Positions 16,542 to 62,200 of a DNA stretch of 64,000 nt are shown piece by piece. Under the pieces are notes generated by a model that worked only from the letters and a program-made list of their open reading frames with translations, was not told the origin of the DNA and ran no database searches. The stretch lies in the NCBI GenBank assembly GCA_963795895.1, contig CAWCJJ010000030.1:35356-99355 (forward strand). Reading direction: 5' to 3'. Position 1 is the first letter of the stretch; every line of letters starts with the position of its first letter. The translations under genes were made by a program, and so were the position numbers. Source of the DNA: an uncultured bacterium. GTDB taxonomy: Bacteria > Verrucomicrobiota > Verrucomicrobiia > Chthoniobacterales > SZAS-18.

Positions 16542-16588
16542 GTGCAAGCGGCAAGTTCGCGCAGCCCCGCCGCGCAGCGGCCTCGTAG

Positions 16589-24360: not shown

Positions 24361-24617
24361 AAGGCAAAGCTTCGGGCTGTCTCAAGGCCGCACCTTCGGT
24401 GCGGAGAAATACTCCGTGCGGACATCCGCTCTCAACCCTCTCCCCTGCTTTCCGTCTCCTTTCTCGTCCTTCTCCGCCCTTCCGTTTTTCGCCTGGATTT
24501 TTTGTCTTTTGCACCTTGCGCGCCTGCGGAAATGCCAGTACTAAGTCCCCCTTTCCAGAACACCGGTGCTGACTCCCCTCCTCGTCCCCCGATTCTTTGA
24601 CCTGATTCATCCCCGCC

Positions 24618-26770: not shown

Positions 26771-26832
26771 AAGTGTGATGTGGTGACGCGGGCAATGCGC
26801 TTGCGCGGTGGTACCGTTCTAGTTCTGGGTGC

Positions 26833-27010
26833 CTTTGGTTTGGACTGCGGCGACTCGTCGCCGCTTTCTCACGGCTCCGCCGGATCCGCCCGCGACATGT
26901 CGCGATGTCCCCCCCCTCCGGCGAAGCCGGCTTAATCCACCGTGAAGGGCAAGGGACGCGACATGTCGCCCGGAAAAGTGGCGACGCGTCGCCGCAGTCC
27001 AAACCAAAGA
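26833..27010. repeat. REP/MITE-like element, family A (ggactgcggcgac.cgtcgccgc termini)
   Basis: Terminal inverted repeats ctttggtttggactgcggcgactcgtcgccgcttt / aaagtggcgacgcgtcgccgcagtccaaaccaaag, with internal cgcgacatgtcgcg palindromes. A related element lies at 43123..43289. Confidence 0.8.
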
Positions 27011-38208: not shown

Positions 38209-38420
38209 GCCTCCGCCCCGGGAGCGCGGGTCTCCGACCCGCAACAGGCGGGTTCCCCGCCGTCGTGCCAAAGGTAGGGATGGCTCTCCGAGCCGCTCCC
38301 CATTGTCTCCGCCTTTGGATAGACACGACCCATGTTATGGCAAGCCAGCCAATCTGATAATGAGAGCGGCTCGGAGAACCATCCCGACCTTCGGAACGAC
38401 GGCGGCTTGGAGCCGCCTGT
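38209..38420. repeat. family C unit plus family B composite element, copy 2
   Basis: gccccgggagcgcgggtctccgacccgc (38209..38260), then aaggtagggatggctctccgagccgct ... gagcggctcggagaaccatcccgaccttcgg ... acggcggcttggagccgcctg. This is colinear with 16589..16740. Confidence 0.8.
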
Positions 38421-41614: not shown

Positions 41615-41636
41615 CGGGAACTCCCTGCGCGGGGAC

Positions 41637-43299
<1,663 letters not shown>

Positions 43300-43463
43300 T
43301 CAAGCCAAACATTTCGAGCGTGAGTGTTAATCAGTTGCAATCACTGCATAATTTACACTGTAAAGAAGCAATCTCTTTCCACGCTGACACCAGTGAGCGC
43401 CGTTCTTTGAACATCTACCCGGTTCATGCGTCATTGGACGTAGCTTTTGTTCCAAACCCCCGT

Positions 43464-45038
43464 ATGCCGACCTTCTCCTACCGCGCCCGTGATGCGCAGG
43501 GCAACCTTGTGCAGGGAACCCTCGAATCACTCGACCGCGCCTCCGCGATCCAAGCCATCGAGCAAAAGCGGTGCGTCCCCGTGAAGATCGAGCCGCTGGC
43601 ACTCTCAGGGACCGCCACGTCTCCCACGTCCCAACCACCGACCGCAAAAGCATCTTCTCCCTCTCGCCGCACCGACAAGCGGGAAAACCAAACCAACGCG
43701 ACCCCCTCCCTCGGCTCCAACTCCACCACCCACTCCAAACCCGTTGGCACCACCGAGCTCGCCGCCGCGACCTCCAGCCAGCGCCTTTCCCACGGCCAGC
43801 GGCTCTTCTTCACCGAACAACTCGCCTACCTGCTCTCGGCGGGGATGACCCTGGACGAAGCGCTGGGAGTCCTGGTGCGCCGCCTAAAACAAGTCGATTT
43901 GCAAAAACTCACCAAAGCCCTGCACCAGGGATTGCTCGAAGGCCGCAGCTTTTCGCAAACGCTCCGGGTCTTCCCCCGCATCTTCTCGCCCTTGTACACG
44001 AACCTCGTCATGGCCGGCGAGGCGAGCGGCGCGCTGGAGGACATCCTGACCCGCCTGGTCAGCCACCTGACCAACATGAAGAAGATGCGGGACACCGTCT
44101 CGCAGGCGCTCATCTACCCCGCGTTCCTGGTGATGGCCGGCGTGGGGCTGGTGGTAATTTTCATCACGGTGATGGTGCCGCGACTGCAAAGCTTTTTCGC
44201 GTCGAGCAACGGCGGCCCGGTCCTCCCCCTCCCCACGCGGATGCTCATCGCCGCCAACGACCTGATCGTGGCCTATTGGTGGGCGGCGGCGGCGGCGGTC
44301 ATGCTGGGGATTCTGATCTTCAAGCTGGCCACGCGTTCCGCCGAGGGGTTGATGCGCTGGGACCGTTTCCGCCTGTCGATCCCCGCGTACGGCTCGGTGG
44401 TGCGCTTCCAGTTTTACGCGCAGTTCGCGCGCACGCTGGGCACGTTGTTGCAAAACGGCGTCACGCTGCTGCGCGCCATCGAGTTGCTGGAGGACATGTC
44501 GGGCAACACCTATTTGAAAGCGCGCATGGCCGAGGCGCGGGCGTCATTGGTGGACGGCTCGAGTTTGTCGAACGCGCTGTCAAAGCACAAAATCTTCCCC
44601 GAACTCTTCGTGGACATGATGGCGGTCGGAGAGCAGTCCGGCAAATTCGCCGAGACGATGCAGATGATCGCGACCGTGTACGAACGCGAGCTGGACCAGC
44701 GGGTAAAAGCCGCGACGGCGGTGATTCCGCCGATCATCATTATCGTGATCGCGGTGCTGGTCGGGGCGGTGGTGTACGGCATCATCAGCGCGGTGTTCAG
44801 CGTGACCTCCGGACTGCAGCACAGCGCGCGGTTGAGTGTTCTTCTGTGTCTTTCTGCAGGTCTGTTGTACGTACAGGCTATCAGTCCTTGTTTGCAGGTT
44901 TACAATTTAACCCCAACCATACCTGATATCTTGAGGGTCGTCAGGATCATCTACAAATACGTGCATAACGTAACCTCCATACGGCCAATTTCCCGAGATC
45001 AGCGCATCCCGATTATTTGGAAAGGAGAATTGAAATAA
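43464..45038 (+). CDS. GspF/PilC family inner-membrane platform protein with a non-native C-terminal extension
   Basis: MPTFSYRARDAQGNLVQGTLE start and two GspF-type repeats (LAYLLSAGMTLDEAL.., FARTLGTLLQNGVTLLRAI..). After ..AVFSVTSGLQ (~44820) the ORF runs on ~70 codons into AT-rich sequence antisense to gene 44907..45533. Confidence 0.82.
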   Translation: MPTFSYRARDAQGNLVQGTLESLDRASAIQAIEQKRCVPVKIEPLALSGTATSPTSQPPTAKASSPSRRTDKRENQTNATPSLGSNSTTHSKPVGTTELAAATSSQRLSHGQRLFFTEQLAYLLSAGMTLDEALGVLVRRLKQVDLQKLTKALHQGLLEGRSFSQTLRVFPRIFSPLYTNLVMAGEASGALEDILTRLVSHLTNMKKMRDTVSQALIYPAFLVMAGVGLVVIFITVMVPRLQSFFASSNGGPVLPLPTRMLIAANDLIVAYWWAAAAAVMLGILIFKLATRSAEGLMRWDRFRLSIPAYGSVVRFQFYAQFARTLGTLLQNGVTLLRAIELLEDMSGNTYLKARMAEARASLVDGSSLSNALSKHKIFPELFVDMMAVGEQSGKFAETMQMIATVYERELDQRVKAATAVIPPIIIIVIAVLVGAVVYGIISAVFSVTSGLQHSARLSVLLCLSAGLLYVQAISPCLQVYNLTPTIPDILRVVRIIYKYVHNVTSIRPISRDQRIPIIWKGELK

Positions 45039-45533
45039 ATGTGTGAACCCAGCCTCGGTTAATGTTCTTCCTTGGCGGCGGATCGAAACTTTGTTATGCC
45101 AGTAGAATGGGTATCCGCCCATTTTGCTGTTGTGGTAGATGTTTGAATCCAACCATCCATCTTCATCTCTCTCTTCAGGGTCCAACACAAGGGCCTTTGA
45201 GGTAAGCGGCGAAATCAGTGTGGATTTTACCCGGGATCGAATGGACTTGCCGTGTACTACAAATTGGATCAATGGGGCATCCGCTTGCGAATAGATTGTG
45301 CCGCTATGTTTGGGGAGAGATCTGTTTGATGCAGCCCTCTCCTCGAAGGAATTGAAGATAGATATTTCTTTGTCATCTCCATTCAGCTTCAAGGTTGCGA
45401 AGTATTTGGTGCATGGGAATACTTGCGCCGGCATAACGCCCGCCGGGGGAAATCCTCCGATTCGATTTCCTTCCTGCGAATCCGATGCGAGTATCCGGAT
45501 GGGACGACAGAACGCCGCAAAGTCTGTTGGCAT
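44907..45533 (-). CDS. YwqG/DUF1963-like protein, paralog 3
   Basis: NRIGGFPP.., SKMGGYPFYWHN and HLFQFSFPNNRDALISGNWPYGGYVMHVFV are the same three blocks as in 48064..48699 and 53737..54370. The gene is AT-rich. Confidence 0.6.
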   Translation of the reverse strand: MPTDFAAFCRPIRILASDSQEGNRIGGFPPAGVMPAQVFPCTKYFATLKLNGDDKEISIFNSFEERAASNRSLPKHSGTIYSQADAPLIQFVVHGKSIRSRVKSTLISPLTSKALVLDPEERDEDGWLDSNIYHNSKMGGYPFYWHNKVSIRRQGRTLTEAGFTHLFQFSFPNNRDALISGNWPYGGYVMHVFVDDPDDPQDIRYGWG

Positions 45534-45576: not shown

Positions 45577-46612
45577 CGAAAGTTCCGGCATGTTAAACCA
45601 AGGCGTAACGGGTGCCATCCTAAAGAACGACCTCACCAGTTCCGTCTCGGCTTGTACGGCGCTCATGATGGAGAGTGTGGTCGCCCTCATTGTCGCCTTG
45701 CAATCGATCGAGAGCTATCCCAGCCTTTGCTTGAGATGGTTCCAGACCTGCTCGTCCGGGTTGAGGTCCGGCGAGTACGCCGGCAGATGGGCGAGGTGGA
45801 TCTCCTCGTTTTCCTTGACGAACGCCTCCACCCGCGCCGAGCCGTGGCAGCTGGCGTTGTCGGCCACGACGATGATCGGGCGGCCCGCGTCGGCGCGCAG
45901 GTCCCGCAGAAAGGCGACGAACCGCTCCGAGTCCATGCGGCCCTCGATGACCGCGAAGCGCAGGTTCCCGCGCGGGCTGACCGCGGAGACCGGGTTGAGC
46001 CCGAAGCGGTCGCCGCTCTCCGCCACCACCGGGGTTTGTCCCCGCGCGCCCCAGGTGCCCCCGCGCGGGTGGTCGCTTCGCACGGCGCTCTCGTCCACGA
46101 AGTAGAGGTCCGCGCCGACGCGCTTGGCCAGCCGCCCCAGCTTGGGAAAGGGCGCCGCAGGTACTCCGCGCGGGCGCCGGCGTCCTGCTTGTGGGAGCGG
46201 CGCGCGGGAAGCCGGGGGGTGAGGCCCGGCTCCCCGAGCAGCCGGCAAACCGCCCCCTTGCTCAGCTCCACGCCCCTTTCCCTTTGGAGCACGCCCCGGA
46301 CGACCGCCAGCGTCCAGAGGCGGAACTCGAACCCGTGGCGGCGGGGATCGTTTTGGGTGACGGCCCCGCGCAGCCAGGGCGCACCTCCGGGGTCGCCTTG
46401 CGCGGTCGCCCGCTGCGGGGCCGGTCGAGCGGGGCGGCCCGGCCCCCGGCGCGGTGGCGCGCCAGCCAGCCAAAGAGCGTGCGCATGGGGATGTCGTTGA
46501 CGCGCGCCACGACGGCGGCGACCGCGTTGCTGCGCCGCTCCAGCAAGATCGATTGCTTCGGGTCCATTTGCCAGTAGCATAACGGCTGGCGTTCAACATG
46601 CGAAGATTTTCG
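45577..46612 (-). mobile_element. IS630-family element, copy A (transposase frameshifted)
   Basis: Terminal repeats cgaaagttccggcatgttaaacc (45577..) and cgaaaatcttcgcatgttgaacg (reverse complement at ..46612). The transposase pieces are MDPKQSILLERRSNAV.. and ..YFVDESAVRSDHPRGGTWGARGQTPVV..IVVADNASCH..SPDLNPDEQVWNHLK, spread over three frames. Confidence 0.85.
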
Positions 46613-46646
46613 TAAATCGCAATGTGGAGCATTAGTCAAATAACGA

Positions 46647-47090
46647 CTACTTTACCGCTGCTGGAGTGCTCACTCTGAGCAATACGTATCCTATATCCTC
46701 GGCGATGAAAATCTTTGCGTCAGTGCCTCTTTCGGGAGCAACCCAGACGCCCGATTGAAATGTTAAGTGTTGAGGCTGGTTAATAACTCTACCCTGCTTG
46801 GAAAAGTCAAAGAAGTTCAGCGTATTGATCATGGTCACATGATCTTTTTCCAAAGACCAATTCCCAAAGTTTTTATAAAGAGAATTAGTTCTTAACTCGT
46901 AATTCTTTCTATCGTGAAAGAGTTCTTGCTTGTAAGTTGAATTGTCATCCAGCAACCATGATTCAATTTCTCCAGATTTATACATGTACAAGTACTCTCC
47001 ACTCACCTCCTTGGTCGTAAGGGGCGACAACTCGCAGCTATTAAGCAACAAAGCGCATAATAACAACATCAAAAGTTTACGGGAATGCAT
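46647..47090 (-). CDS. lipoprotein, candidate immunity protein
   Basis: Signal plus lipobox LLCALLLNSC. Very AT-rich. It lies immediately downstream of the secreted toxin candidate. Confidence 0.6.
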   Translation of the reverse strand: MHSRKLLMLLLCALLLNSCELSPLTTKEVSGEYLYMYKSGEIESWLLDDNSTYKQELFHDRKNYELRTNSLYKNFGNWSLEKDHVTMINTLNFFDFSKQGRVINQPQHLTFQSGVWVAPERGTDAKIFIAEDIGYVLLRVSTPAAVK

Positions 47091-47135
47091 TTGAAACAGG
47101 AGTTATAATGGAAGGATCAACTGGCACAGTGACGT

Positions 47136-47830
47136 TCAAGTTGTAATTGGTTTAGATTGTATGCATTGGTCCATCTGTACCAAATGGATTATCTCCAGCA
47201 CAGATGAACCGTAACTTATAATATGCGGAATAGGCGGCAAGTGAGTAGCCGAAGTTGCACTTAGATTATCTGTTAGCTGCACATTCACGCTAGCGTCAGT
47301 ATGGTCAGCATTTGAAAAACCAATAAAAGTACTCACTCCGGCAATGCTACCCTGAAGAGCGCGGCAGGGTTGCTGCCCAATGCGTCTCCCGGAAAATCAA
47401 CAAAACCATAATAGAGTGGGTTCAAATCGTCTAACCTGCGTCCGGTTGGAACCGATTCACTGAGGTGGTTCTCATCTGGATTTGCTGAATTTAGAAGACC
47501 GCTCATGGCTGCTCTTTTGGGAGCCAGTCTGAACATAGTCCGATTGAATCATTTGTTGGCCCAGCACACTTGTTTCATCAAAAGTGCGAGTGTCTGAGGG
47601 TCCTGTTCCCGTAGTCCATTCGTAGAACACCTGATTAGCAGTCACATGTTCATCATCCGACCATTTGGTCCAGTTGCCGCCCGCCCGCCGGGCCCAGCGC
47701 GCGGATCGCGTCGTGGTAGTCCAGCGTGCCGTCGGCCCGCCAGGCGAGCCTCGCGCAGCGGCTCCCCCCAGCCCGGCAGCGCCGTGGCCACCAGCCACAA
47801 CAGCAACAGAACAAAGCGCGCGATTGACAT
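47136..47830 (-). CDS. small Sec-leader toxin candidate (unknown C-terminal domain), several frame changes
   Basis: It starts with MSIARFVLLLLWLVATALPGWGEPLRE, nearly identical to the leader of the RHS protein at 53574. It continues across frames as ..DGTLDYHDAIRALG.., GNWTKWSDDEHVTANQVFYEWTTGTGPSDTRTFDE.., ..LNSANPDENHL..LNPLYYGFVDFPGD.. and ..STFIGFSNADHTD.. Confidence 0.5.
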
Positions 47831-48063
47831 CCGGGATTCTAGAGTTCGGGCCACCGTTCAGGGGAGGTCTTCCAGCAGGTTCATTGTGTACACACCCTAA
47901 GTTCGATTTTATCCATTTTCAGAGACGCACGCCACTGGAGAACAATTTGTAAGACGGAAGTTATTGCAGGTCGCGCAAAAAAGACATCCATAAATTCCCG
48001 GCGGCTGGCGCGCAACGACTTGCGCCTCCTCGGGGGCGGTTGTGAAAATTGGATAAAGTCAAG

Positions 48064-48699
48064 CTAAGCCCAGATATATTTGAATTCGGTCGTCTCGCCT
48101 ACGATCTTTACGAATAGATGAAAAATCATTAGACCAAATGGCCAATTTACATCAAGAAGTGTATCCGCGTTTCCTGGAAAAGTTAACTGAAGTATGTGAA
48201 CATACCCAGCTGAGGTGATCTCGTTCGTAAGCGCGTAAGCATATGATCCAGCATCCTCAAAATAAACGTCCCCGCCTAATTTACTACCAGGCCATTTTGA
48301 TTCCGGGTCGTGCGGATTGAGATCCTTGATAGCAGACCCAACCCTTAAGCGGTGCGCCGGTATAGATGAAGCTAGTTGCTTATCACGCGATCTCACTGAG
48401 TGAGGATGAACAACCATCTGAACAAATGGGCTGTTAGAACCATGAATCTTACGACAGTTTGTCCAACTGCTATTTACGTCTGAAGCAATTGGAGAAAGCC
48501 AGATAAAGAGGGACAACTCATTCTTATGGAACCAAGGTATCGTCAATAAGTACTCAGACCCTTCTTTTCGTAATTTTTCAGGTTTGACATTCACCGGAGC
48601 ATTACCTCCAATACGTGGTCCAAGGTCTCGATCGATCTTTGTGATAGTTAACGGCCTGCATTTACCCTGAACAAAATTTATTTCATTAATCAATTGCAT
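48064..48699 (-). CDS. YwqG/DUF1963-like protein, paralog 1
   Basis: GPRIGGNAPVNV, GSKLGGDVYFEDAG and HILQLTFPGNADTLLDVNWPFGLMIFHLFV. This is the [SK]-x-GG ... LLQ-like ... W-x-G pattern of the YwqG family. It is an intact, AT-rich, 211-aa ORF. Confidence 0.6.
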   Translation of the reverse strand: MQLINEINFVQGKCRPLTITKIDRDLGPRIGGNAPVNVKPEKLRKEGSEYLLTIPWFHKNELSLFIWLSPIASDVNSSWTNCRKIHGSNSPFVQMVVHPHSVRSRDKQLASSIPAHRLRVGSAIKDLNPHDPESKWPGSKLGGDVYFEDAGSYAYALTNEITSAGYVHILQLTFPGNADTLLDVNWPFGLMIFHLFVKIVGETTEFKYIWA

Positions 48700-48778
48700 A
48701 GGACTCCTAATCTAGCAGCGTTAGCCATTGAGTCGTTCAGGAATGTTTCAACATGATATTCTGGAACTCCCGCCCTAA

Positions 48779-49219
48779 CTACAATGCCGTCAGGTAATTC
48801 GTAAAATGTTGACCATTAGTGTCTTGCGGATACACGACTTTTTCTGCGGTCTTGTGCCATTCCGACCGCCTGAGGTGTTTTTCCGCCATTTTCCTACTTT
48901 TTGAGGTCTGCGGACGGGTTTCAACCCCAAATTCACCAATTACGGCCTTAAATTGAGGCAAATCGTCCTGTTTATCCTCGCTTCTCCCTCCTACAAGCGA
49001 CCAATTACCTGACGGCATTGCCGTTAGGGGACCGGGCATTTTGAGGAACTCAAGGCCGCAGCGAGGGACATACTTATCTGCGAAGCGCGAAGAATTGAAA
49101 CCAATGATCTGAATCCAACTGCCTTCTCGCCGCAACAACTCGCTTCCAACCTGTCGCCACGGTGGGCGCAACATTGGTGCAAATGACTTCACTACCTTGC
49201 TCAATTCGCCAGATTTCAT
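48779..49219 (-). CDS. DUF4304-like hypothetical (immunity-type) protein
   Basis: The N-terminus VVKSFAPMLRPPWRQVGSELLRREGSWIQIIGFNSSRF.. resembles the DUF4304 pattern. The gene is AT-rich. Confidence 0.4.
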   Translation of the reverse strand: MKSGELSKVVKSFAPMLRPPWRQVGSELLRREGSWIQIIGFNSSRFADKYVPRCGLEFLKMPGPLTAMPSGNWSLVGGRSEDKQDDLPQFKAVIGEFGVETRPQTSKSRKMAEKHLRRSEWHKTAEKVVYPQDTNGQHFTNYLTAL

Positions 49220-49242
49220 GGGTGAATCACAGTAGTTGGAAC

Positions 49243-49288
49243 GGTGGGCGCAAGCCCCGCTTGCGCACTATGTCCTATGAAGTTTAAT
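49243..49288. mobile_element. orphan terminal fragment of the IS5/DDE_Tnp_4-like element
   Basis: gcgcactatgtcctatgaagtttaa matches the right end of the complete element (gcgcactatgtcctatgaagtcta at 57792..57815). No transposase is adjacent. Confidence 0.7.
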
Positions 49289-49317
49289 GGCATTGCGTCT
49301 CTAATAAACGCTTGCCC

Positions 49318-49580
49318 TCACGAGTTATTCTGCCAAGTTTCCAAGCACCCACCACACACTACCTCAAGTCGTTCAAGAAAGGACTCAGACTCGTCTTCCC
49401 CTTCGAGCGCGTCCCACACCCTCTTACACGAATCGCACAGCCACATGCGTCCAAGCAGTACTCGATTGCCGGAAACGGGATCATTGTGAATTCGCTTGTT
49501 GTCGAGTGACCTGCCCGAATGTGCTTGCAAACGAAGCTCGCACCCTTTTGTTCATGGATTAGGCATTGAAATATCGCCAT
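49318..49580 (-). CDS. small Cys-rich hypothetical protein (one frameshift inferred)
   Basis: MAIFQCLIHEQKGASFVCKHI.. in one frame and ..WLCDSCKRVWDALEGEDESESFLERLEVVCGGCLETW in the next. The paired CxxC motifs suggest a zinc ribbon. Confidence 0.3.
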
Positions 49581-49903
49581 CAGTTTCTCCCGAGTTGAAG
49601 TTTGATGCAAGTTCGCAGGGCAACATTGCTCGCGGGAATATCCGCGCCTCCTGCGTGCAAGATATCCGCAGCAGTGGTAAGGCAGCTATTGCTCCGCATA
49701 TTGATATTGTTACTCCACGAATTAGTTTTATTGCACGTACACGTCCCAGAGCATTAGATTTTTCACATTGGGTCCGCGTTTGTTCCTTGGCACAGAAGGG
49801 AGAGGGCCAAGCCGTAGAGCGTTGTCGGCATCCAACACAACAAAATAACCGAGCGCGCGAAGCCCATGCAAAAATTCGCTCTAAATTGGTGTTGGGCATC
49901 CAT

Positions 49904-51245
49904 CTAAGGGGATCGGCATTGAATGTTATACCCGTTGAGGGTGGATGCGGATGTCCCACCATCGCAGGTCGGGGTGGCTGCTGCAAGCGCCCCTCCAGCC
50001 CACGCGCTTGGCTGCGCCCGCCACCACGCGCCCTTTGGCGTAGGCCTTTTTGACCAGGCGCACCAGCGGCTCGCCGCCCCGCCAAGTCATCGTGGCGGCG
50101 TAGCCCAGGGCGGCGGCCGCGTCGGTGAGCGGCGCGCCGTTCCAGTGCTTCTCCAGCGCGGCCCAAACAGCTCCACCGGGTTGTACTTGCTGTGGTAGGG
50201 CGGGTAGTACACCAGGTGGAGGCGCAGGCCGCTCCGGTCGGCGAACTCCGCCATGCGCGAGGGAGGAAGCGGGTTCTGCGCCCGCCGCTCTCGGGTCCGT
50301 TGTCCAGGTTGAGGACCAACTCCTCCACGCCCGGGTGGAGGTGCCCGTGGCGGCGCCACCAGCTCTGGATGCAGTCGCCCATCAGGTCGGCGGTCTTGGC
50401 CGGGCTGGTGGAGAAGGTCAGGTCCAGCTCGCCGCCCTTGACCTCCAGGATGCCCACCGGGATGAGCTTCGCCTTGTCCTGGGCCAGGTCGTGGTCCAGG
50501 GCCGCCACCGGCCTGAGCCCGCGCGCGCGGCCCCGGCGGCTGTAGTCGCCCAGCACCACGGTGGCCTTGGTGTCCACGCTCAGGCGCAGGAACCTGCCCC
50601 CGCTCGCGTCCGCCGCCGCGTTGGCGGCGCTGGACGTTTTGGAAGATGGCGTCGCACCCGGGCGTTTTTTTTCGGGCCGGGTCTTGGCCACGGCCGCGCA
50701 GGCGGTAGCCCAGCCGGTTGAGCACCCCGTTTAAGGTCCGCTCGGCGGGCACCTCCACCGGGTCCCAGCCCTTTTCCTCGATGAGCGCGCGCCGCAGCGA
50801 GGCGGCGCCCAGGCGCGTGTGGGCGAGCGTGCCGCGCAGCCGCGGGTTGGCCTGCGCCTGGGCGTGGCCAGCGCGCGCACGTCGGCCGCCAGTTCGGGCC
50901 ACTTCTGCTCCACGGGCCGGTTGCCCCGCGCGCGAAAGGCGTCGTCCAGGCAGACGATCCCGGTGCGGTTCTCCTGTTGGCCCTGGGCGACCGAGTGGCG
51001 GTTCCACCCAGGAGCGTCTCCGCGGCCCGCGCGCCGCCGCCAAAGAGCGCGTCAGCCACCCGCCCCTGGAAGGAGCGGCGCTTGTGGCCGGTGAGCAGGC
51101 GCGAACCGTCAAGCAGCAACTCCCTGACGACGGGGGTGAGGTCGGGGTGGACATGGCGGGTGGGCCGGGCGATCATCCGCGCACCATAGCGCGCGGCGGG
51201 TTCAATGCGAACTTGAGGGATAACATTCAATGCCGATCCCCTTAG
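49904..51245 (-). mobile_element. ISAzo13-family insertion sequence (transposase frameshifted)
   Basis: Perfect 26-nt terminal inverted repeats ctaaggggatcggcattgaatgttat (49904.. and reverse complement ending 51245). Transposase fragments are RLSVDTKATVVLGDYSRRG.., LVLNLDNGPESGGRRT.. and LHLVYYPPYHSKYNPVE.., typical of the ISAzo13 DDE family. Confidence 0.85.
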
Positions 51246-51284
51246 GTGTTGAAGACTTGATGCGGAGGTGATTGTGAAGATGCC

Positions 51285-51956
51285 TTACTGAAGAAGGGTC
51301 GTTTTCAATCTCTCCCACCGCACATACTGCGCAATGTGTGGCGGCATCGGGTTGGCAACCCGGAGTTTAGCTAGTTGCGAATTAATTAGGCGCCTTGCAG
51401 CGTCTTTCATCCCCTCTATAACGTAGATTGCCGCTAGTTTTTCAATTCTTTGATCTAAGTTGAGAGGCAGTCGCAGTTTGTTATCGTTCATGCTGGCAGT
51501 ATCGGACATTGTTCTTCTCCTCTTCGGAACCAAGCCGAACTCGCTGTTCCCGCACGTCCGCGTAGTAATCTATCTCATCAATGAGTTGCAGTTTCAATGA
51601 TCCTAAGGTATTAAATCTACCAATGAGGGGCAGTAAATACTTCCTACAAGTCGTGAGAATCTGTTCGACCACGTCTCCTGGGGTTTCGGGAGAGAATTGC
51701 CACTCCATGTATGTCTTTCCCGAGCTCAGGAAATGCGCTGGAACCATGAAAGCGGAGACAAGCCTACTCCTTTCTGTTCTCCAGCAGCTTCTAAGTTCCT
51801 TAAACCGAATCGCTGCGTTGGCATTTATCAGTGCAGAGTTTCCTCGTGAACGTGCGGGGAAGCGTAGACATTTGCGATATGGTGGGTATTTGCCTTTGAT
51901 AAATTAATGTCTGCACCTCGTTTGAATCCAATTTCTGACAGCGGTTCAACCAACAT
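51285..51956 (-). CDS. DUF4304-like candidate immunity protein for the RHS toxin, two frame changes
   Basis: It starts ~27 nt after the RHS stop with MLVEPLSEIGFKRGADINLSKANTHHIANVYASP... It continues as ..MEWQFSPETPGDVVEQILTTCRKYLLPLI.. (ORF 51481..51747) and ..LRLPLNLDQRIEKLAAIYVIEG.. (ORF 51285..51533). Confidence 0.45.
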
Positions 51957-51982
51957 TCCGTCCAATTTGTTTTCTATTGTGA

Positions 51983-53574
51983 TCAAGGACCTTGCCATAA
52001 TACTTTTGCCGCACCGTTAATTGTAACTCCGGATTGTTTCCCGACTGCATTCGCGCCGCCATTCATGTTGATCCATCTGTCGCCACTGAACTGCTGACTG
52101 TCCGAACGCGAGAAAGCCCCTTCTGAAGACTTGATCTCGAATCCCCAGTTCAGGCTGCTAGAATCGGATAAAACAGCGTCATAACGTCGCAACCCAAACG
52201 GTGTACCAAAGCTCACTTCCTTATCCACGAGGCTCCATCCATTATTCAACGCGCTTTGAACAAAATCATCAACAGCTGCAGAACCCGGAGAGATCTGACC
52301 TTCTGATTTCGGGGTGAACTTTCCCTGCGCGTCACGTCCCTGCTCGATAGCTCCAGTGTATGAATCGCCTCCACCGTTTGGGCTAATCGTGTCAGCTACA
52401 AACGGGCCATTGCCTGGTTCTTTAACTGCTCCACTTAGATTTGCCGGTCGGTAATGTAGTTGCCCAGGCGCGAAGTCGCCCTCGACCACCCTGGCCGCCT
52501 GGTTCTCGGCGGTGCCGAACTCGCCGAACGCCGCCACAAAGGGGGCCGCGGCCATCGTGGCGTCGCCCCTGGCCCGGTTGAGCAGCAGCGCGGCGGTGAG
52601 CAGATCCCCGTGGTCCCAGGCCGCCCAGGCGCCCTGCAGGTCGTTTTGCACGGCCACCTGCGAGTCGTAGCCGCTGAAGGCGCGCGCGGCGTCGTACAGG
52701 AGGCCCTTGGCCACGAACTCGCCCATGCCGTCGCTCTGGGCGATCCAGTGCTCGAAGGTCCGCTCGTTGAGCTTGGGGTCGAGGGCGCCCCGCCCGGTCT
52801 CCGAGGCCACGCGTCCGTCGGCGTCGAGGCGGTTGACGGGGTCGCCGCCCGCGTAGGCGTAGAGGTCCGCGCTCGCCCCATGGCCCAGCGGGTCCGCGGA
52901 GAGTAACCTTCCATCCAGCGGGTCGTAGTGGCGCGCCCCCAGCCAGTAGAAGCCCGTGGGGTCCGGCGCCGCCCGCGCCAGCCCAGGCTCTGGGCCAGGG
53001 TGGTTGTGCCAAGGAAAGGGGTGGCCGCGCCCGCGCCCGGCAGCGCCCCGTAGCCCCCGTAGCGCGCGCTCTGCCAGGAGAGCGCCGCGCCGCCGCCCGC
53101 GCCCTCCACGCGCGCCTCCGCGTGCCCGAAGGCGTCGAGCACGTAGCCCGCGCCCGCCCCGTCGCTCTCGCGCACGCTGCCCTCCAGCCCGCCGATGCCC
53201 TGCGCGCCGCCGTAGCGCCCGTCCAGGTCCGGGCCGTAGAAGAGCCACTGGCGGGCGCCCCCGTCTCTGCGCCACCGCCACCTCCAGGAACTCCACCGCC
53301 GGGTCAAACTAACGCCGGTCGCCGTGGCCTGCGCGCCCTGCGCCGCGCCCCCGCTCGCCACCGGGGTGTGGACCGTGCGCAGCCGCCGGCCCAGGCCGTC
53401 GTAGATCGCCCGCCAGTCGTAGCCGGCATTGCCCGTGTCGCGCGCCTGCGCGCTGACCAGCCGGTCTAGCGCATCCCAGGCGAGCACCTCGCGCAGCGGC
53501 TCCCCCCAGCCCGGCAGCGCCGTGGCCGTCGCCGCCAGCCACCACAGCAACAGAACAAAGCGCGCGATTGACAT
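51983..53574 (-). CDS. short Sec-leader RHS-core protein with PD-(D/E)xK-like C-terminal toxin domain, several frame changes
   Basis: The leader is MSIARFVLLWWLAATATALPGWGEPLRE, followed by YD-type repeats (YDGLGRR, LFYGPDLDGRYGGAQGIGGL). The RHS core end is GFYWLGARHYDPLDGRLLSADPLGHGASADLYAYAGGDPVNRLDADG. A ~270-aa tail then ends with RRYDAVLSD...WGFEIKSSEG (a D...ExK nuclease signature). Confidence 0.75.
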
Positions 53575-53736
53575 CCGGGATTCTAATTTCAGAGACGCAC
53601 GCTGCTGGAGAATAATTTGCAAGACGGAAGTTTTTGCAGGACGCGCAAAAAACAACATTCATAAATTCCCGGCGGCTGGCGCGCAACGATTTGCGCCTCC
53701 TCGGAGGGGCAGCTCTGAAAATTGGATACAGTCGAG

Positions 53737-54370
53737 CTAAACCCAGATATATTTGAATTCTCTTGGTCGTCTCGCCTACGATCTTTACGAATAGATGCGA
53801 AATCATTAGACCAAATGGCCAATTTACATCAAGAAGTGTATCCGCGTTTCCTGGAAAAGTTAACTGAAGTATGTGAACATACCCAGCCGAGGTGATCTCG
53901 TTCGTAAGCGCGTAAGCATATGATCCGGCATCCTCAAAATAAACGTCCCCGCCTAATTTACTACCAGGCCATTTTGATTCCGGGTCGTGCGGATTGAGAT
54001 CCTTGATAGCAGACCCAATCCTTAAGCAGTGTGCCGGTATAGATGAAGCTAGTTGCTTATCACGCGATCTCACTGAGTGAGGATGAACAACCATCTGAAC
54101 AAATGGGCTGTTAGAATCATGAATCTTACGACAGTTTGTCCAAGTGCTATTTACGTCCGAAGCAATTGGAGAAAGCCAGATAAAGAGGGACAACTCATTC
54201 TTATGGAACCAAGGTATCGTCAATAAATACTCAGATTCTTCTTTTTGCAAGTCTTCGGGTCTGACATCCACCGGCGCATTACCTCCGATGCGCGGTCCGA
54301 ACTCTTGATCGCTCTTTGTGATGATCATTGGCTTGCATTTACCCGGCACAAAATTCATCTCATTTATCAA
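53737..54370 (-). CDS. YwqG/DUF1963-like protein, paralog 2 (4-bp insertion near the 3' end)
   Basis: About 90 percent identical by eye to 48064..48699. The insertion tctt (gaattcTCTTggtcg versus gaattcggtcg) shifts the frame just before the expected stop (53737..53739), giving the artificial run-on ORF 53309..54370. Confidence 0.6.
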
Positions 54371-54413
54371 TAGTATATGTCTATTAATACAACGGCGTTA
54401 GCCATAGAACCGT

Positions 54414-54860: not shown

Positions 54861-55074
54861 TTAGCGTCCCTGTATAATACTGGTTTTGACTCCTGGGTCG
54901 GTTTTTAGGGGCACTATCAATATTTCCTTCGGTCAACCCGCCCCACGTTACACCAGACCCTGGTAGGAAGTACATATTTCCGCTCACTGGCAAGCGTAAG
55001 TTTGCCGCGAATGGATTTTCGACATCAATTCGTACGAGGGATCCGCTTGAAAGTTGTCCGTGTATTGTCCTTTA

Positions 55075-56125
<1,051 letters not shown>

Positions 56126-56790: not shown

Positions 56791-57814
56791 AGACTTCATA
56801 GGACGTAGCCGCCAGAGCCGGGGCTTGTGGTAGGGGTGGGAGCATGGACATGGACGTCGTTTTCCGCAAGCCCAAGCTGCTGCGCGCCCTCACCACCCTC
56901 GATCCCGGGGAGTTCGCGCGGCTGGAGGCGGGCCTGGCGGAGGCGCTGGCCGAGCAACGGGCCCAGTGCCGCCACGACGGCGGGGCGCGCCAGCGCGCCG
57001 CCGGGGCGGGCGGGGCGACCAGCAAGCTGCCCACGGCGCGGGCCAAGCTGTTCTTTTTGCTCTTTTACTTCAAGAGCTACCCGACCCGGGAGGCCATGGG
57101 CTTCTTCTTCGGCCTAAGCCAGCCGCAGGTCTGCGAGTGGGTCAAGGCGCTCACGCCGCTGGTCAGCGCGGCGCTGGGCCGGGAACTGCTGCGGCCCGCG
57201 CGGCGCCCCGCGGACCTGGGGGCGCTGCTCGCCGAGACCCCCGAGTTGCTGCTCATCATCGACGGGGCCGAGCGCCCGGTTTGCCGCCCCAAGGACCCGG
57301 AGGCGCAAAGCAAGGACTACAGCGGCAAGAAGAAGTCCCACCGCAAGAAGAACCTGGTGGTCTCCTCGCGCCGCAAGGTGGTTTACCTCGGGCCGACCGC
57401 CCCGGGCAGCGTGCATGACAAGCGGCTCGCCGATGAAAGCGGGCTGGTCTTCCCGCCGGGCACCCTGCTGTTCAAGGACACGGCCTTCCAAGGCTACGAA
57501 CCGCCGGGCATCGACACCCTCCAGCCCAAGAGGAAGCCGCCCAAAAAAGAACTCCACCCTATCCAGAAAACCATCAACCAGATCATCAGCCGAACGCGCG
57601 TGGGCGTCGAGCACGTCATCGGCGGCATCAAGCGCTGCCACATCGTCGCGGACATCTTCCGCGCCCGCCGCCGCGACTTCGTGGACGAGGTGATGAGCGT
57701 GGCCGGAGGTCTGCACAACCTGCGGGTGGCCACCCGCCAGCCGCTTGCCGTGTAAGAAAATCGCGGCGGCGGGCGGAGCTTGCCCTCACTCGCGCACTAT
57801 GTCCTATGAAGTCT
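56791..57814 (+). mobile_element. IS5-family (DDE_Tnp_4 / Harbinger-like transposase) insertion sequence with 3-bp target duplication
   Basis: Terminal repeats agacttcataggacgtag / ctatgtcctatgaagtct. AAT flanks both sides (56788..56790 and 57815..57817). The intact transposase ORF 56844..57755 has LLIIDGAE, FKDTAFQG and VGVEHVIGGIK (DDE). Confidence 0.88.
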
Positions 57815-58355
57815 AATATAGATGTGACCCCATGGACCGATGCTCCAAACTTAGAACCGGGCGCCGATCCTTGAGCGTAATCCCTGGCGCTTCACCCTCG
57901 CGCAGCGATGTGAACTCCAGCAGCATGTCCCGGATGGAGGGGAACATGTAGTAGCTTTTCACCGACACGCCAAGGCACTGGTCCTCGTAGCCGAAGATCG
58001 AGCCGTACCTCTCCGCGTTGAGATCAATGCCGAAGGAGAAACCATTCAACTCAAACCACACAAACAGGAAGCACTGGTCGTAGTAGGGGAAAACGCCCGG
58101 CAGTTCGGGCGCGTCGAACATCTGGTTGATGTTGGCCCCGAAGGGGTCGTCGTAGAGGTAGAACTTCTGGCGCGGCGGCAGCACGAAGTGGCCGCCGACG
58201 ACCCGCTCGAAGAAGATGCGCGCGTCCTCGGGCAGCGGATGGCCGTGGGAGCGGTCCCCGGATGGCTGGTCGCCGGCGCGCAGGATCAGGTCACGGCCCA
58301 CTTCGGCGGCGAAACGCTCGATGAGTTCATCCATTGTCCTATTCGCGTGATTCAA
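57813..58355 (-). CDS. SMI1/KNR4 (SUKH-1)-like immunity protein
   Basis: ..LPEDARIFFERVVGGHF.., ..FGIDLNAERYGSIFGYED.. and ..MFPSIRDMLLEF follow the SUKH pattern. The stop codon is formed at the IS junction. Confidence 0.65.
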   Translation of the reverse strand: MNHANRTMDELIERFAAEVGRDLILRAGDQPSGDRSHGHPLPEDARIFFERVVGGHFVLPPRQKFYLYDDPFGANINQMFDAPELPGVFPYYDQCFLFVWFELNGFSFGIDLNAERYGSIFGYEDQCLGVSVKSYYMFPSIRDMLLEFTSLREGEAPGITLKDRRPVLSLEHRSMGSHLY

Positions 58356-58484
58356 CTGTTTGGACGCGTTTGCCTTCTGCCAGGCAGCTCACCGACCAGG
58401 CACGATGGAGGGCACATCGCCGTGGCCCCTCAACATAATAATGGAGGATCACCTCCCTCGTCGTCCTCGTCCTTGCGAATACCC

Positions 58485-58965
58485 TCAGTCCAGGGTGCGT
58501 TCCAGCCACTCTGAAAACGAACGCGCCACCACTGGCGCCGGCACGCTGAATGGAACCATACCCCGGCGCCCAGGTGGGCGAGATCGAGCCGAATTGTCGG
58601 CGTTCAAGGTCGATGCCGATGATCGAGCTTAGATCATCGCATTGGGCGCGCGAGCAGGTAGCAGTCGTCGAAGTGCTCGATGCGGTGGGGATTCGCGCCG
58701 GCTTCCATGATCTCGTTAAGCCCCGCTCGAAAGGCTCCGCGAGCAGCTCCCAGCCGTTGACCGGATGGTCCCCGCCGTAGAGCGGGAGACCGTCGTTGCC
58801 CCGGCTCACGTAGATGTCGCCGCCCGCGAAGGCGTGGTAGAACGCGGCCACGTCGCGGGCAGGCGTGCGCCGGGCTTGGTTCGCGGGGGCCGGCGTGCGC
58901 GGTATAAGCTTGCAGAAGGGCTCCCGCAGGAGCCGCTCGATGAGCTGATGGATCGTCATGGGCAT
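58485..58965 (-). pseudogene. second SMI1/KNR4 (SUKH)-like immunity gene, at least two frame changes
   Basis: MPMTIHQLIERLLREPF..VAAFYHAFAGGDIYV.., then ..HFDDCYLLA / DDLSSIIGIDLERRQFGSI.., then the tail PFSVPAPVVARSFSEWLERTLD-stop, in three frames. Confidence 0.5.
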
Positions 58966-59241
58966 TTCAGGTTGTATGTTGTTAGCTTGCGCGCACTCCA
59001 GTTCTGCAACTGATGGAGCGTCTGGTTGGTGACAGGTGCCCCAGCTTGCTGTGCGGCCCTCAGCATTGTCAAGGCACACTCTTCCATCTCAGCCTCCGAC
59101 AGCGCGCTCCACAAACTTCAGATTACCCATATCAACTTGAATTTTTCGACTCCAAAGCGGGCGAATTTATTGGCCAGCCATTTGTCCCCCGCTTCGTGGG
59201 CGATAGCATGGTGATACCCCTCTAGCTCTACACTGGGGAAC

Positions 59242-62200
59242 CTAACCTCTGTCCTTTGCACTCACGCTATATCCCGTATAATTCGCCTTCAACCAAGCAT
59301 CAAAATAGAAATGATGTTGCGGGTTCTTTGAGATTACTGCCGCTCCGGCTCCGTCGAATACCTGTTGATAATTGATCGTGTTGTAAACAGCACTTCGGCC
59401 TCTCTGGATTTTATTGGTACCATAAAGCATGGTTTGCCCCGCCGTATTGTGCACAAGGGCCGCCACGTCACCCGTGACTACGAAAAACGTATCGGGACCG
59501 TCAACGTCGAGGTTGAACGTCATGGTCTTCCCTGCCTCCGCCATCACCGTCGTCACCACGGGGGCGGTGCCCGTGCGGCCAAGCAGATGCATGCCTTGCT
59601 TCAAGTCGCCAGCGGGTACCGCCTTTTTCTCCGGTCCAAAACGGATGATCGAGGGTGGTGATAACGCTGCCGCCGTTGTCTTCCCGGCCTTCATCCTTCC
59701 AGCCGACGCAGAGTGGGGAAGAAGTGAAACTAAACATCCGGCTCAACACCATCTGCGGAGTGGCGCTCCCCCCCTTGGAAGGATCGTATCCCAGCACCCG
59801 GTCCCCCTTTTCAAGCATTTCAATCGCTTTGGTGGTTCCGTCAGCCATGACAACGCGCGTGCCCGCCCCAAAGCAACCCAATGGCGAGCGGCACAAGGAC
59901 CCGAGACGGCGGCGGCGCGGGCCTCGTCCGCGCTGCGGGCGACACGACCGAAGTTTATCGCCACTCCTTTTGACACCTTTTGTAGAAGCACGCTCTCGGA
60001 AGAAACCTTGGACGCCAGTTGCATGAACTTTGCCGCGGCCCCGTGCCCTCCCTTAACACCCTGCCAATCACCCCGGCCTTGGCGATCCCGGCGGTGAGCA
60101 CGCTCACTCCAACCTGCTCGCCGATGTAACCGACGGCATACCCGGCAAAATAGGCGCTGAGATAAACGGGGTCTTCGGCATCCTTGCCCAGCAGCAGGCT
60201 TAATCGATCGACCTGCGTGTTTGTGAAATCTCCGATGATCTGGTCAATCATCGCTGAAACATTGCTCTTCAAACCTTCCCAGCCCAGGTCCTTGAGCGCC
60301 GAAAAACAATGGTAGAGTTCCGACGCTACAACCCAGGGTTCGAACTCGAGTTTGAACAGAAATTTTTCCAGGTCGCCAACGGCAAGCAAGGTGCTGACGA
60401 CACCTTGCACATCGCCTTTCACGCCATCCCACAGGCCGAAAACGACTCCCTCGCCGACCGCGCTGTTGGCCGTGATGATGCCCTGCACCCAATGGAGCAG
60501 TGTTTTTGCTACCAGGCCGCGATTGCGGATTTGTGTCAGGGGCGATAACTCGGCGCTGCGCACTTGCGTCGGCACGGGATTGAAGGTCGCTTCGTCATAT
60601 GCGAGAAAGCCGAGCTCATTTTCACCGTCGTCGTAATTCTGGGCTGGCGCGGCGGGCTCGTCGTTTCTGACGATTGGGCGCTCACTGCGGGGAGCGGGTT
60701 TCGCTTGATAGGATAGATACGGTTTTGACCGGGACGCGCTCTATTGAGGGCGCCACCAACCGGACCGTTGTCATCGGGGTCCGAGGCGCCGCCTTTCCAC
60801 GCGAGAATCGGCGGCGCGGGGTCACCCGCGACGAACGCCTCGGTCGCGGTCACCAAGCGTGCGAAATCACCATCGGCCTTGAGATGACGTGCGGCTTGCG
60901 CAATCACCTTGCCATCCTTTTTCAACTTTATCGTGAAGTCGCGATCTGATTTACACAGGCGTAAAACCGTAATTTATCGCCTTCCTTAACGAAGGTGACT
61001 TCCTGCTTTGCGGCCTTCGTCGCTTTTTCCTCCCCTGCGGCGTAATTCTGCGCCTCGCGGTCGCTGAAAATGTCGCTTTCGCTTTCGTAGATCGAAGTCT
61101 GGGTGTCACCAAACAACTTTGTGTAACTCCACCGGTTCCCCCCGCACTCCATTTCGACATCGACTTCGCCGAACACATTCGGAATCGTTCCCGTGACCAT
61201 GCGGTCGCGCGAGTCGAGGTCCATCGGCAGCATCAGGACCGCGCGGGGAGACCAGCCCACTTGCTGCGGATTGCCGTCCGCGTCATCCTGGAAAATGGCT
61301 TTCTCCGCGTTGGCTAGAATCAGAGTGTCGGGGCTGATTCCCACCGCGCGCGACAGGTGCCAGTCCGTCGAATCGCTCAAGAGCGTGTTCAGGTTGGTGA
61401 TATCCCAGAACGCGTCGTCCCCGCCGGCGTTGTCGTTCTTGCCCCAGAAGGTCGCTTCCAAGCTGGCAAAACCCTCGTCCTGCGGATTAGCACCGTCGTG
61501 CTCCCATTCGATGGACTCGCCGACGATCCAGTTAAGGTTGGTGATGTCGTAGGCGCGGCCGTAACCCACCGGAAACTGCGGTGCCACGGATGAAAGCACG
61601 CCCAGGTCGATCGGGCTCGTGTCGGTGGCCGACCAATAAACCGGATGATACCGCGCCGTCGCGTCCGGACGGATGCTGTCGTCGCCGATGACATCAATGT
61701 CCGCGTAGCCGGCGATCCCGCCCGACTTGTTGATGGCTTCCGGGGTTGCTGTGCAAGCCCGCCGGCAGCACGCCCAGGTCCGTCAGGACCGGGTAGCCGT
61801 GCAAGGAGAAGGTGGCCGTGCCCGGTTCGTAGCGAAAGGCGTGCGTGGGCTCCGCGTTGTTGAAGAGCCTGGCCTTTTGAGTACGCTGCTCCAGGCTGTC
61901 GCCGGTCACTTCGGAGGCGCTGAAGGGACGGGCGGCATAGCCCGCGATGGTGTCCAATTCGCTGATGACTTTGGACACGCTGGTCAACCGCCCTTGGCCG
62001 AGATCGGCCCCGCCGTAACTGAGCGGCCCGAGCCAGTCCCAGGGCAGCGTCGAAGCGGAAACGTCCCCCACGGCGGCCATGCCCAGCGAAAACCGGCTGC
62101 GCTGGTGAGCAAAACGTCGTGGGCGATGAGCGTTTTTCCAGTCGTTCCGTAGCCGCGGCCGTTGCCCCGTTCCGATGATTTTGCCCATTGCAGAACGCCG

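Follow-up and report, generated by a model that had tools for sequence, protein, structure and literature searches.

A probable twice-kept cassette boundary with a putative orphan immunity gene in a polymorphic-toxin locus of an uncultured verrucomicrobial bacterium

Introduction

Why should a segment of about 1 kb, made up of a small gene, a spacer and the first codons of another gene, occur twice in one locus, each time in front of a different toxin body? This question is raised by a 64,000-nt stretch of DNA (hereafter the window) from an uncultured bacterium of the Verrucomicrobiota (Chthoniobacterales, SZAS-18; assembly GCA_963795895.1, contig CAWCJJ010000030.1, positions 35,356 to 99,355 of the forward strand). 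An initial annotation, made by reading the letters without database searches, had interpreted the segment as a constant, promoter-proximal cassette with swappable toxin and immunity payloads, of which a gene resembling YwqG (DUF1963) would be a constant part. Here we argue for a different answer. With a probability of roughly 0.6, the segment is the boundary between two displaced toxin cassettes that was kept twice in an array of orphan cassettes; its upstream gene, a member of a TYPP-like family, would be an orphan immunity gene, and the present arrangement would have arisen by recombination between RHS repeats and by later gene conversion.

Results

Comparing the window with itself (blastn) revealed two direct repeats ∼5.7 kb apart, which align in two collinear blocks (47917–48728 versus 53587–54405, 91.2% identity over 819 nt; 47740–47841 versus 53476–53585, 90.9% identity over 110 nt). 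Global alignment gave firm limits of 47740–48728 for copy 1 and 53476–54405 for copy 2 and confirmed the coordinates and indels of the initial annotation, which had put the identity at ∼90% by eye (∼91% by blastn). All genes of the repeat and of the payloads behind it lie on the minus strand and are transcribed from high to low coordinates. Read in this direction, copy 1 comprises the remnant of a toxin tail, a TYPP-like gene, a spacer and a leader running up to the RHS-repeat motif E-V-L-A-W. On the upstream side the limit is firm (48728/54405), with faint similarity continuing to ∼48781/54475 (score 18 versus 11.3 ± 1.9 in shuffles). Four indels separate the copies: 74 nt are in surplus in copy 1 just upstream of the leader ATG (47842–47915; previously given as ∼75 bp), and copy 2 carries an additional AAGA seven codons short of the end of the first gene (53761–53764; the 4-bp gene-end indel already noted), 6 nt, or two codons, more in the leader, and 2 nt more directly behind ...CCGCTGCGCGAGG. 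Past this last indel, nine identical bases (CTCGCCTGG) follow before similarity ceases at 47740/53476, which bears out the abrupt end described behind the shared leader. Similarity extending into the toxin bodies, as in a plain segmental duplication, was not seen; it stops at the RHS motif. A third copy of the repeat was not found within the window by the same self-comparison.

The origin of the upstream gene became apparent from related loci that were fetched for comparison (labelled with L-numbers or as P0007 contigs). The TYPP-like family member of L002 starts 4 nt behind a gene encoding RHS repeats, a PT-HINT domain and a ∼122-aa tip, that of L003 overlaps the stop codon of a PT-HINT toxin gene, and that of L006 overlaps the end of the gene for a 3668-aa toxin with RHS and PT-HINT regions. 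The tips of these three toxins are homologous, sharing DAHE[LP]LQ..W and ending in ...CP; we named them CT-A (∼122 aa), a tip that matched no Pfam family. A hidden Markov model (HMM) built from the three tips matched the window at 48815→48693 (E = 1.5e-7, model positions 91–121), and the L006 toxin matched the same place by tblastn. Copy 1 of the repeat is thus preceded by a CT-A tail remnant (48690–48815, minus strand; ...GIVVRAGVPEYHVETFLNDSMANAARLGVLCN, then stop), equivalent to the last ∼31–41 codons of a CT-A toxin, the stop codon of which overlaps the ATG of the TYPP-like gene by 10 nt. Upstream of copy 2, alignment with copy 1 and translation point to a degenerate 13-codon remnant of the same tail (54367–54408, minus strand; SMANAVVLIDIYY, then stop), too short for a test of its own.

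An independent scan of metagenome contigs, for which we used a degenerate DNA pattern for the WPFG...FH.F motif of the family, returned 14 full-length family members. CT-A was encoded directly upstream of nine of them, with overlapping stop and start codons, and L063 retained only a CT-A remnant, as in the window. In total, CT-A stands directly ahead of the family member in 12 of ∼17 informative contexts, co-oriented and with stop and start codons overlapping or abutting. Because of these 12 contexts we read the TYPP-like gene as an orphan immunity gene, and the protein is most likely an orphan immunity protein rather than part of the expression unit of the next toxin. Such a context is characteristic of cognate toxin and immunity genes in polymorphic-toxin systems (PMC3482391). 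The repeat begins inside the stump of a deleted toxin gene, the partner of which is, to judge from its position, the gene behind it. The tail remnant and the position of the family behind CT-A together imply that the repeat spans a cassette boundary, with the end of one cassette and the start of the next. The earlier view of the upstream gene as a component of a constant cassette gives way to that of a cognate partner left behind by the deleted CT-A toxin.

Seen from the toxin side, CT-A tips behind PT-HINT or RHS regions were always followed by a TYPP-like gene, with overlapping stop and start codons (L002, L003, L006, L048, L054, L056, L059, L076, L078, L079 and L082).

The three paralogs that an HMM search detected in the window, exactly three in number, differ in their state of preservation. 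Copy 1 (48064–48699, minus strand), the predicted orphan immunity gene for CT-A toxins, is intact and encodes 211 aa. In copy 2 (53309–54370, minus strand; homologous part 54370→53753), the alignment shows ATA in place of ATG, and the 4-nt insertion at 53761–53764 shifts the frame, replaces the conserved C-terminal ...EFKYIWA and lets the open reading frame (ORF) read on into the spacer; the public record annotates it as a 349-aa read-through product. The statement that each copy holds a complete gene is therefore correct for copy 1 only. A divergent third paralog (44907–45533, minus strand) shares 29% identity (BLASTP E = 6e-25; HMM E = 6e-62). It lies at the distal end of the array, convergent with a gene for type II secretion system (T2SS) protein F (43125–45038, plus strand).

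Globally, a profile of the three paralogs collected 285 clusters, 178 of them at E ≤ 1e-10, from 1.8 billion representative proteins, nearly all stand-alone proteins of ∼205 aa. In an alignment of 93 sequences, the invariant or near-invariant residues were G31-G32-x-x-P35, K140-x-G142-G143-x-P145, Q171 and W186-P187. The TYPP superfamily (TSR4, YwqG/DUF1963, PDCD2L and PDCD2) is defined by two repeats with a GGxP-type motif and a conserved Q (PMC4275035), and the family has both motifs and the Q, the first motif with one extra residue. None of the three paralogs matched DUF1963 (PF09234; gathering threshold 23 bits), even at E ≤ 10, or any other Pfam or NCBIfam model. Weak DUF1963 matches were present in 5 of the 93 family members (best E = 0.014), and DUF1963 was also the top Pfam match of the family consensus (19.5 bits, E = 0.0014), below the threshold and in the C-terminal repeat only. 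The sole PDB sequence match of the family profile was YwqG itself (1pv5, E = 0.31). An AlphaFold2 model based on the deep alignment had a mean predicted local distance difference test (pLDDT) score of 94.9 and was mostly beta; a model from a 3-sequence alignment only (pLDDT 36) was not used. These data suggest a remote TYPP-like family rather than a member of DUF1963, so that the YwqG-like character seen initially holds by motif, while the DUF1963 label does not, no paralog reaching the Pfam threshold. A word-indexed protein search returned only the copy 1 protein itself when this was the query and three proteins for the 93-sequence profile, and a scan of a genome collection with copy 1 yielded no relative.

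If the TYPP-like protein were not an immunity protein, it could assist the product of the downstream toxin gene as a chaperone or adaptor. A toxin ORF does follow the gene in both copies of the window, and in Bacillus subtilis ywqG lies upstream of an LXG toxin operon. Moreover, Burroughs and Aravind predicted TYPP domains to act in protein–protein interactions and to be chaperone-like (PMC4275035). However, what relatives conserve next to the gene is not a downstream toxin but CT-A on the upstream side, the stop codon of the toxin gene overlapping the start codon of the family member. What follows the gene varies, from membrane proteins in L006 to SnoaL in the P0007 contigs and nothing behind the third paralog, and the two downstream toxin bodies of the window are unrelated to each other. 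We therefore regard a chaperone role as very unlikely and retain the orphan immunity protein as the preferred interpretation.

The payloads behind the two copies have homologs elsewhere. Behind copy 1 (47119–47748, minus strand; blastx) lie a single RHS repeat (LAWRADGTLDYHDAIRALGP) and an N-terminally shortened toxin tip, which matches the tip of the 2967-aa L012 toxin (residues 2796–2971, blastx E = 6e-18) but lacks its first 35–40 residues; the end of the RHS core is also missing. As assembled, this body contains at least three frameshifts and a TAA stop codon, and the leader is out of frame with it, so the 230-aa toxin previously read here does not exist as an ORF. A word-indexed protein search with the conceptual toxin found no match. 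The lipoprotein gene that follows (46647–47090, minus strand; lipobox LLNSC) encodes the predicted immunity protein of this payload; as the initial annotation had it, a lipoprotein stands behind the payload, and it is homologous to the lipoprotein encoded directly behind the L012 toxin (BLASTP E = 1e-13).

The copy 2 payload gene (51983–53574, minus strand) consists of a 33-codon leader (ATG at 53574), an RHS end and a 275-aa unclassified tip, with three frameshifts as assembled. Its RHS part, located by tblastn and blastx against L002, L006, L007 and L008, represents the last ∼230 aa of the RHS region (53490–52805, ending GDPVNRLDADGR). From E-V-L-A-W-D-A-L-D-R-L-V onwards it is 53% identical to L002 and 43% to L006 (alignment A4, which starts at L-x-W-D). 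The Pfam model RHS_repeat (PF05593) matched the homologs in L002 and L006, but the 437-aa ORF of the window gave no family, and its relationship is based on tblastn (E = 3e-47). Scanning species-representative genomes yielded 31 loci with this type of RHS end, almost all from Verrucomicrobiota. In most of them the RHS end stands behind ∼2900–3300 in-frame residues that begin with a Sec signal peptide, and ahead of a tip of 170–310 residues. Whereas the RHS ends are 37–54% identical, the 31 tips fall into 20 unrelated clusters, i.e. a conserved body with a variable C-terminal tip, as is typical of polymorphic toxins. By this comparison, copy 2 is roughly the last seventh of a full-length toxin gene, and both payloads are 5′-truncated toxin-tip/immunity cassettes of one family of ∼3000-aa Sec/RHS toxins, with mutually unrelated tips. 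This agrees with the initial assignment of the region to a polymorphic-toxin locus with two unrelated payloads, an L012-type tip on one side and an RHS end with a different tip on the other. The RHS-core character of copy 2 was likewise correct as far as these last ∼230 aa are concerned; its 'nuclease-like' tail could not be confirmed, since the tip had no match in Pfam, NCBIfam or PDB. The same databases gave no match for the downstream gene previously called DUF4304-like (51481–51998, minus strand). With its ATG 13 nt before the toxin stop codon and one frameshift near 51840, it is, by position, the putative immunity gene of the copy 2 payload.

The end of the repeat points to the way in which the payloads were joined. 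Both E-V-L-A-W|DALDRL (copy 2) and E-V-L-A-W|RADGTL (copy 1) look like natural, contiguous RHS repeats, and the motif E/Q-T-L-T/A-W recurs within a single protein, where the various RHS repeats that contain it continue with DAxGRL or with RADGxL. In copy 1, the sequence after E-V-L-A-W (RADGTLDYHDAIRALGP) with its 'LAWRADGTL' resembles an RHS repeat that full-length toxins have ∼210 aa further upstream (L009, 'ETLAWRADGSLDAY'). The end of the repeat thus coincides with a few codons common to two non-allelic RHS repeats, which is the outcome expected of recombination between RHS repeats, and we infer that such recombination made the junction.

Upstream of this junction, the repeat includes 33 codons of the next ORF rather than the ∼27 codons counted initially, namely a signal-peptide-like leader and the E-V-L-A-W motif. 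The ATG lies at 47830 in copy 1 and at 53574 in copy 2, and the ORF reads MSIARFVLLL(W)WLAATATALPGWGEPLRE-VLAW. Its hydrophobic leader, MSIARFVLLL(W)WLAATATA in both copies, has the presumed shape of a Sec signal peptide, with a charged start, 14 hydrophobic residues and A-T-A. The DNA of the two copies is 98% identical from just ahead of the ATG to the end of the leader, so that a merely compositional likeness of two signal peptides is excluded, and the claim of a shared gene start stands. In copy 1, the leader ORF (47642–47830, minus strand; MSIARFVLLLLWLVATALPGWGEPLRE...) runs out of frame with the RHS and toxin body through the 2-nt deficit after GAGG. The spacer, ∼150–230 nt long across the copies, covers 47831–48063 in copy 1 (minus strand), including the 74 nt missing from copy 2. 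No Rfam family, significant secondary structure, or consensus promoter or terminator was detected in the spacer, nor an excess of promoter- or terminator-like sites. The 74-nt segment itself lies 11 nt upstream of the leader ATG and holds the palindrome TGTGTACACA; it has no other copy in the window and hence is no obvious repeat element.

Does the segment, then, serve as a constant 5′ cassette after all, in which the upstream gene, a promoter-bearing spacer and a leader up to the RHS motif stay the same while payloads are swapped behind them, yielding alternative Sec-exported mini-toxins? Two different payloads do stand behind the same 33-codon start, the leader is almost unchanged and its indel is in frame, and recombination between the direct repeats would remove 5.7 kb, so that payload 1 came to stand behind module 2. 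Truncated RHS toxin ORFs with a leader of their own also occur downstream of the main toxins of L030 (with a SUKH gene next), L009 and L008, the latter with a 199-nt repeat upstream of the mini-toxin and behind its immunity gene. However, the toxin-tail remnant and the position of the family behind CT-A already explain the upstream gene, and neither leader-toxin ORF is intact as assembled: in copy 1, the leader does not share the frame of its body, from which the RHS core end and ∼35–40 tip residues are missing and in which a stop codon is present, and the copy 2 body has three frameshifts. A fragment limited to the final 230 aa of an RHS protein of ∼3000 aa would not be expected to form an RHS shell. 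A promoter-like site was not found in the spacer, and further copies of the module were found neither in the window nor in the public collections searched. Neither leader nor spacer had a significant match elsewhere in the window or in any of the fetched loci, and the exact 30-nt leader sequence was not found in the metagenome scan. Of the original proposal, the recombinational joining of payloads is supported by a repeat that ends in an RHS motif, but a swappable constant cassette is unsupported and, in our view, unlikely. We continue to favour a cassette boundary retained twice.

The leader-bearing ORFs of the related loci, all from other Verrucomicrobiota and all downstream of giant Sec/RHS toxins, are described here in their own right. 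In L030, the ORF at 11977–13470 opens with MKRWLQFVFLLWAAFSASA and continues with a 334-nt repeat of the core end of the main gene, a new tip and a SUKH immunity gene; the cassette as a whole spans 11977–14049, downstream of a giant Sec/RHS toxin gene. A similar ORF of L009 opens at 12787 (12787–13428), and a further one was observed at 1106–2845 of L008 (region 779–3465), where the 199-nt direct repeat, 98.5% identical, lies ahead of the mini-toxin and again behind its immunity gene. A 12-aa match to the leader and spacer in L017 was discarded, being out of frame.

The two copies are not uniformly similar. Identity is 72% in the 29 nt preceding the TYPP-like gene and 79% over its first 154 nt, rises to 97.8% over the central 451 nt of the gene (Fisher p = 1e-12 versus the 5′ part), and is 90.5% in the spacer, before the 98% of the leader. 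Because identity varies along the repeat, from 72–79% to 98%, a simple recent segmental duplication is insufficient as the whole story and was rejected. The mosaic rather indicates an older divergence followed by gene conversion between the copies.

The second copy could also be an assembly artefact, with strain variants stitched together in tandem or repeats mis-joined around a single real module. The assembly does have visible defects (a run of ∼30 T and ∼48 A in an insertion sequence (IS) copy, a frameshifted purA and many frame breaks), and the collections searched contained no close relatives of the 102-kb source contig. On the other hand, the copies differ by ∼9% in a structured mosaic, neither flank of one copy resembles that of the other, and between them lie 5.7 kb of unique sequence with an IS element, and the 29% identical third paralog shows that the family is truly multi-copy here. 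We consider an artefact highly improbable and treat both copies of the boundary as real.

The same defects bear on the state of the genes. The gene purA (41631–42900, minus strand) is split over two frames near 42650–42668, at a break that is not a homopolymer, due either to assembly indel errors or to a broken essential gene. As the assembly has indel problems, frameshifts alone do not prove pseudogenes here; sequencing error is a less likely explanation for the TAA of copy 1 and for the ATG→ATA change and 4-nt insertion of copy 2.

The array lies behind the 3′ part of a main polymorphic toxin gene (59242–64000, minus strand; 5′ end outside the window), which encodes a Big_7 Ig domain, a PT-HINT domain (∼59875–59440) and a 68-aa tip and is broken into at least seven frame pieces. 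Its PT-HINT domain is like those carrying CT-A elsewhere, but the tip is different, which fits a successive replacement of tips that leaves immunity genes behind. Two ORFs behind this gene (58339–59079 and 57813–58355) matched no known immunity family. When all small ORFs and both payload tips were searched against Pfam, NCBIfam and PDB, only IS transposases, TPR, PT-HINT, Big_7 and T2SS-F were matched.

Several IS elements interrupt the region, any of which could have contributed to its rearrangements. A frameshifted IS630-like element (DDE_3; 45687–46632, minus strand) is the inverted partner of a second one at 55071–56109 (plus strand). Between the repeat copies lies a frameshifted transposase gene of the ISAzo13 type (49552–51154, minus strand; Pfam DDE_Tnp_ISAZ013), and an IS5-type element is also present. 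The two IS630-like copies (45723–46616 and 55071–55975; 86–96% identical) bracket both repeats and their payloads in inverted orientation, and recombination between them would invert an 8.4-kb segment. In the second copy, an anomalous run of ∼30 T and then ∼48 A (55645–55722) replaces ∼93 nt of the transposase gene (compare 45975–46069 in the other copy) and looks like an assembly or scaffolding artefact. Elsewhere in the window we observed dispersed or palindromic intergenic repeats that are 79–92% identical (16580–16739 versus 38259–38419; 43124–43282; 24130–24361; 26821–26867 versus 43253–43300) and may be REP-like elements.

Discussion

We propose that a polymorphic-toxin locus in a Verrucomicrobiota-type genome has its downstream 'graveyard' in the region from 44.9 to 64 kb (minus strand), in which displaced toxin-tip/immunity cassettes, interrupted by four IS copies, would lie behind a large PT-HINT toxin gene. 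At one of these cassettes the CT-A tip would have been lost, leaving its last codons and the translationally coupled cognate gene. The TYPP-like protein most likely binds and neutralises CT-A toxins, to judge by its genomic neighbours, and the gene would now serve, if at all, as orphan immunity against the CT-A toxins of neighbouring strains. The next cassette would begin behind the spacer with an ATG, the signal-peptide-like leader and E-V-L-A-W. Recombination between non-allelic RHS repeats would then have joined the same upstream sequence to two truncated tips with their own immunity genes, and gene conversion between the copies would have come afterwards. The left-hand end of the repeat lies in the CT-A tail and its right-hand end inside the E-V-L-A-W motif. 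This order of events is what we infer from the alignments.

Several observations weigh against this interpretation. The immunity function of the family is deduced from genomic context, and the adjacent toxin is absent in three family contexts (L001, L005 and the P0007 contigs). A Foldseek search of the AlphaFold2 model against PDB gave no match at E ≤ 0.001, with 1pv5 absent from the top 50, and the TYPP assignment therefore rests on motifs and sub-threshold profile matches. The last 4.7 kb of the main toxin gene within the window have no RHS homology, which is why the RHS-type cassettes cannot be shown to be displaced tips of this toxin. Because purA is frameshifted too, the broken state of the toxin ORFs may partly reflect sequencing error. 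Finally, conservation is higher in the leader than in the spacer, and the 6 nt by which the two leaders differ keep the frame, as would fit a functional, expressed leader, and short leader-bearing toxin ORFs also exist in L008, L009 and L030.

A further idea is that the module is a portable 'capture and express' unit, in which an immunity gene and a promoter-bearing spacer are followed by a Sec leader that ends in a generic RHS motif. If so, recombination with any RHS repeat would place a foreign tip/immunity cassette under the start codon and export signal of the module and give rise to small, independently secreted toxins without the giant RHS body, and leader-bearing orphan cassettes, including those of L008, L009 and L030, would represent a distinct strategy of toxin diversification in Verrucomicrobiota. 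We think this quite improbable. More generally, downstream cassettes of verrucomicrobial Sec/RHS toxins often have their own start codon and signal-peptide-like leader, in contrast to the silent orphans of the classical type, and one may ask whether small secreted toxins are made from them.

Under the interpretation that we prefer, a boundary kept twice, the repeat is nothing more unusual than what recombination leaves behind in a polymorphic-toxin locus, and its kind, an orphan-cassette array, is known. What is new is modest: a CT-A/TYPP-like toxin–immunity pair, and a start codon and leader carried by the orphan cassettes themselves. CT-A and its ∼205-aa partner family (∼285 clusters, unannotated) would constitute a new pair of toxin tip and immunity protein. 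No paper that connects YwqG with immunity came up in a search of the literature. The TYPP superfamily (YwqG, TSR4 and PDCD2) would gain a concrete, testable bacterial role if toxin-binding immunity proved true, in parallel to SUKH and SuFu, immunity domains that eukaryotes have recruited.

Comparison with known systems

With the TYPP superfamily the proteins share two GGxP-type motifs, the conserved Q, a predicted mostly beta structure in two repeats, the presence of several paralogs in one locus and a predicted protein-binding role. They differ from YwqG in length (∼205 aa versus 264 aa), fall below the DUF1963 threshold and have no Foldseek match to 1pv5, and their toxin–immunity context is one that the TYPP paper (PMC4275035) does not propose.

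As in polyimmunity loci (Zhang et al. 2012), several paralogous genes of immunity type occur in one orientation in one locus. Such loci are by definition never interrupted by toxin cassettes (PMC3482391), whereas toxin fragments lie between the three paralogs of the window, which sets it outside that definition. The resemblance is closer to the strings of immunity genes behind toxin genes, which the same authors interpreted as remnants of successive tip replacements (PMC3482391): in both cases a toxin gene is followed by a coupled immunity gene and the leftovers would be relics of tip replacement, a reading with which the three TYPP-like genes and the two CT-A tail remnants are consistent. That paper contains no YwqG, DUF1963 or PDCD2 term, and neither the TYPP-like family nor CT-A is among its listed families; the array described here is, moreover, interrupted by IS630-, ISAzo13- and IS5-type elements.

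The payloads themselves compare best with the orphan cassettes of Rhs and CdiA systems, for example the Salmonella rhs orphan (Koskiniemi et al. 2014, PMC3967940). In both, 5′-truncated fragments keep a piece of the repeat or core and a linked immunity gene of their own, lie in one orientation downstream of a large toxin gene, and have tips joined to other upstream sequence by recombination at a shared core. The core end of Rhs orphans, with its …DPxG… motif, has a counterpart in the 230-aa RHS end of copy 2, which ends in GDPVNRLDADGR, while copy 1 has a single RHS repeat and no core end. As for linked immunity, copy 1 has the L012-like lipoprotein (E = 1e-13) and copy 2 only a coupled ORF of no known family. 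In contrast to Rhs and CdiA orphans, the repeated sequence here consists of the preceding immunity gene, the spacer and the leader instead of the toxin core, and the main toxin visible in the window (59.2–64 kb) is without RHS homology. Classical Rhs orphans have neither a translation start nor an export signal (PMC3967940), whereas the fragments of the window, like those of L008, L009 and L030, have an ATG and a signal-peptide-like leader, and it is this difference that leaves some weight to the idea of a functional, constant start.

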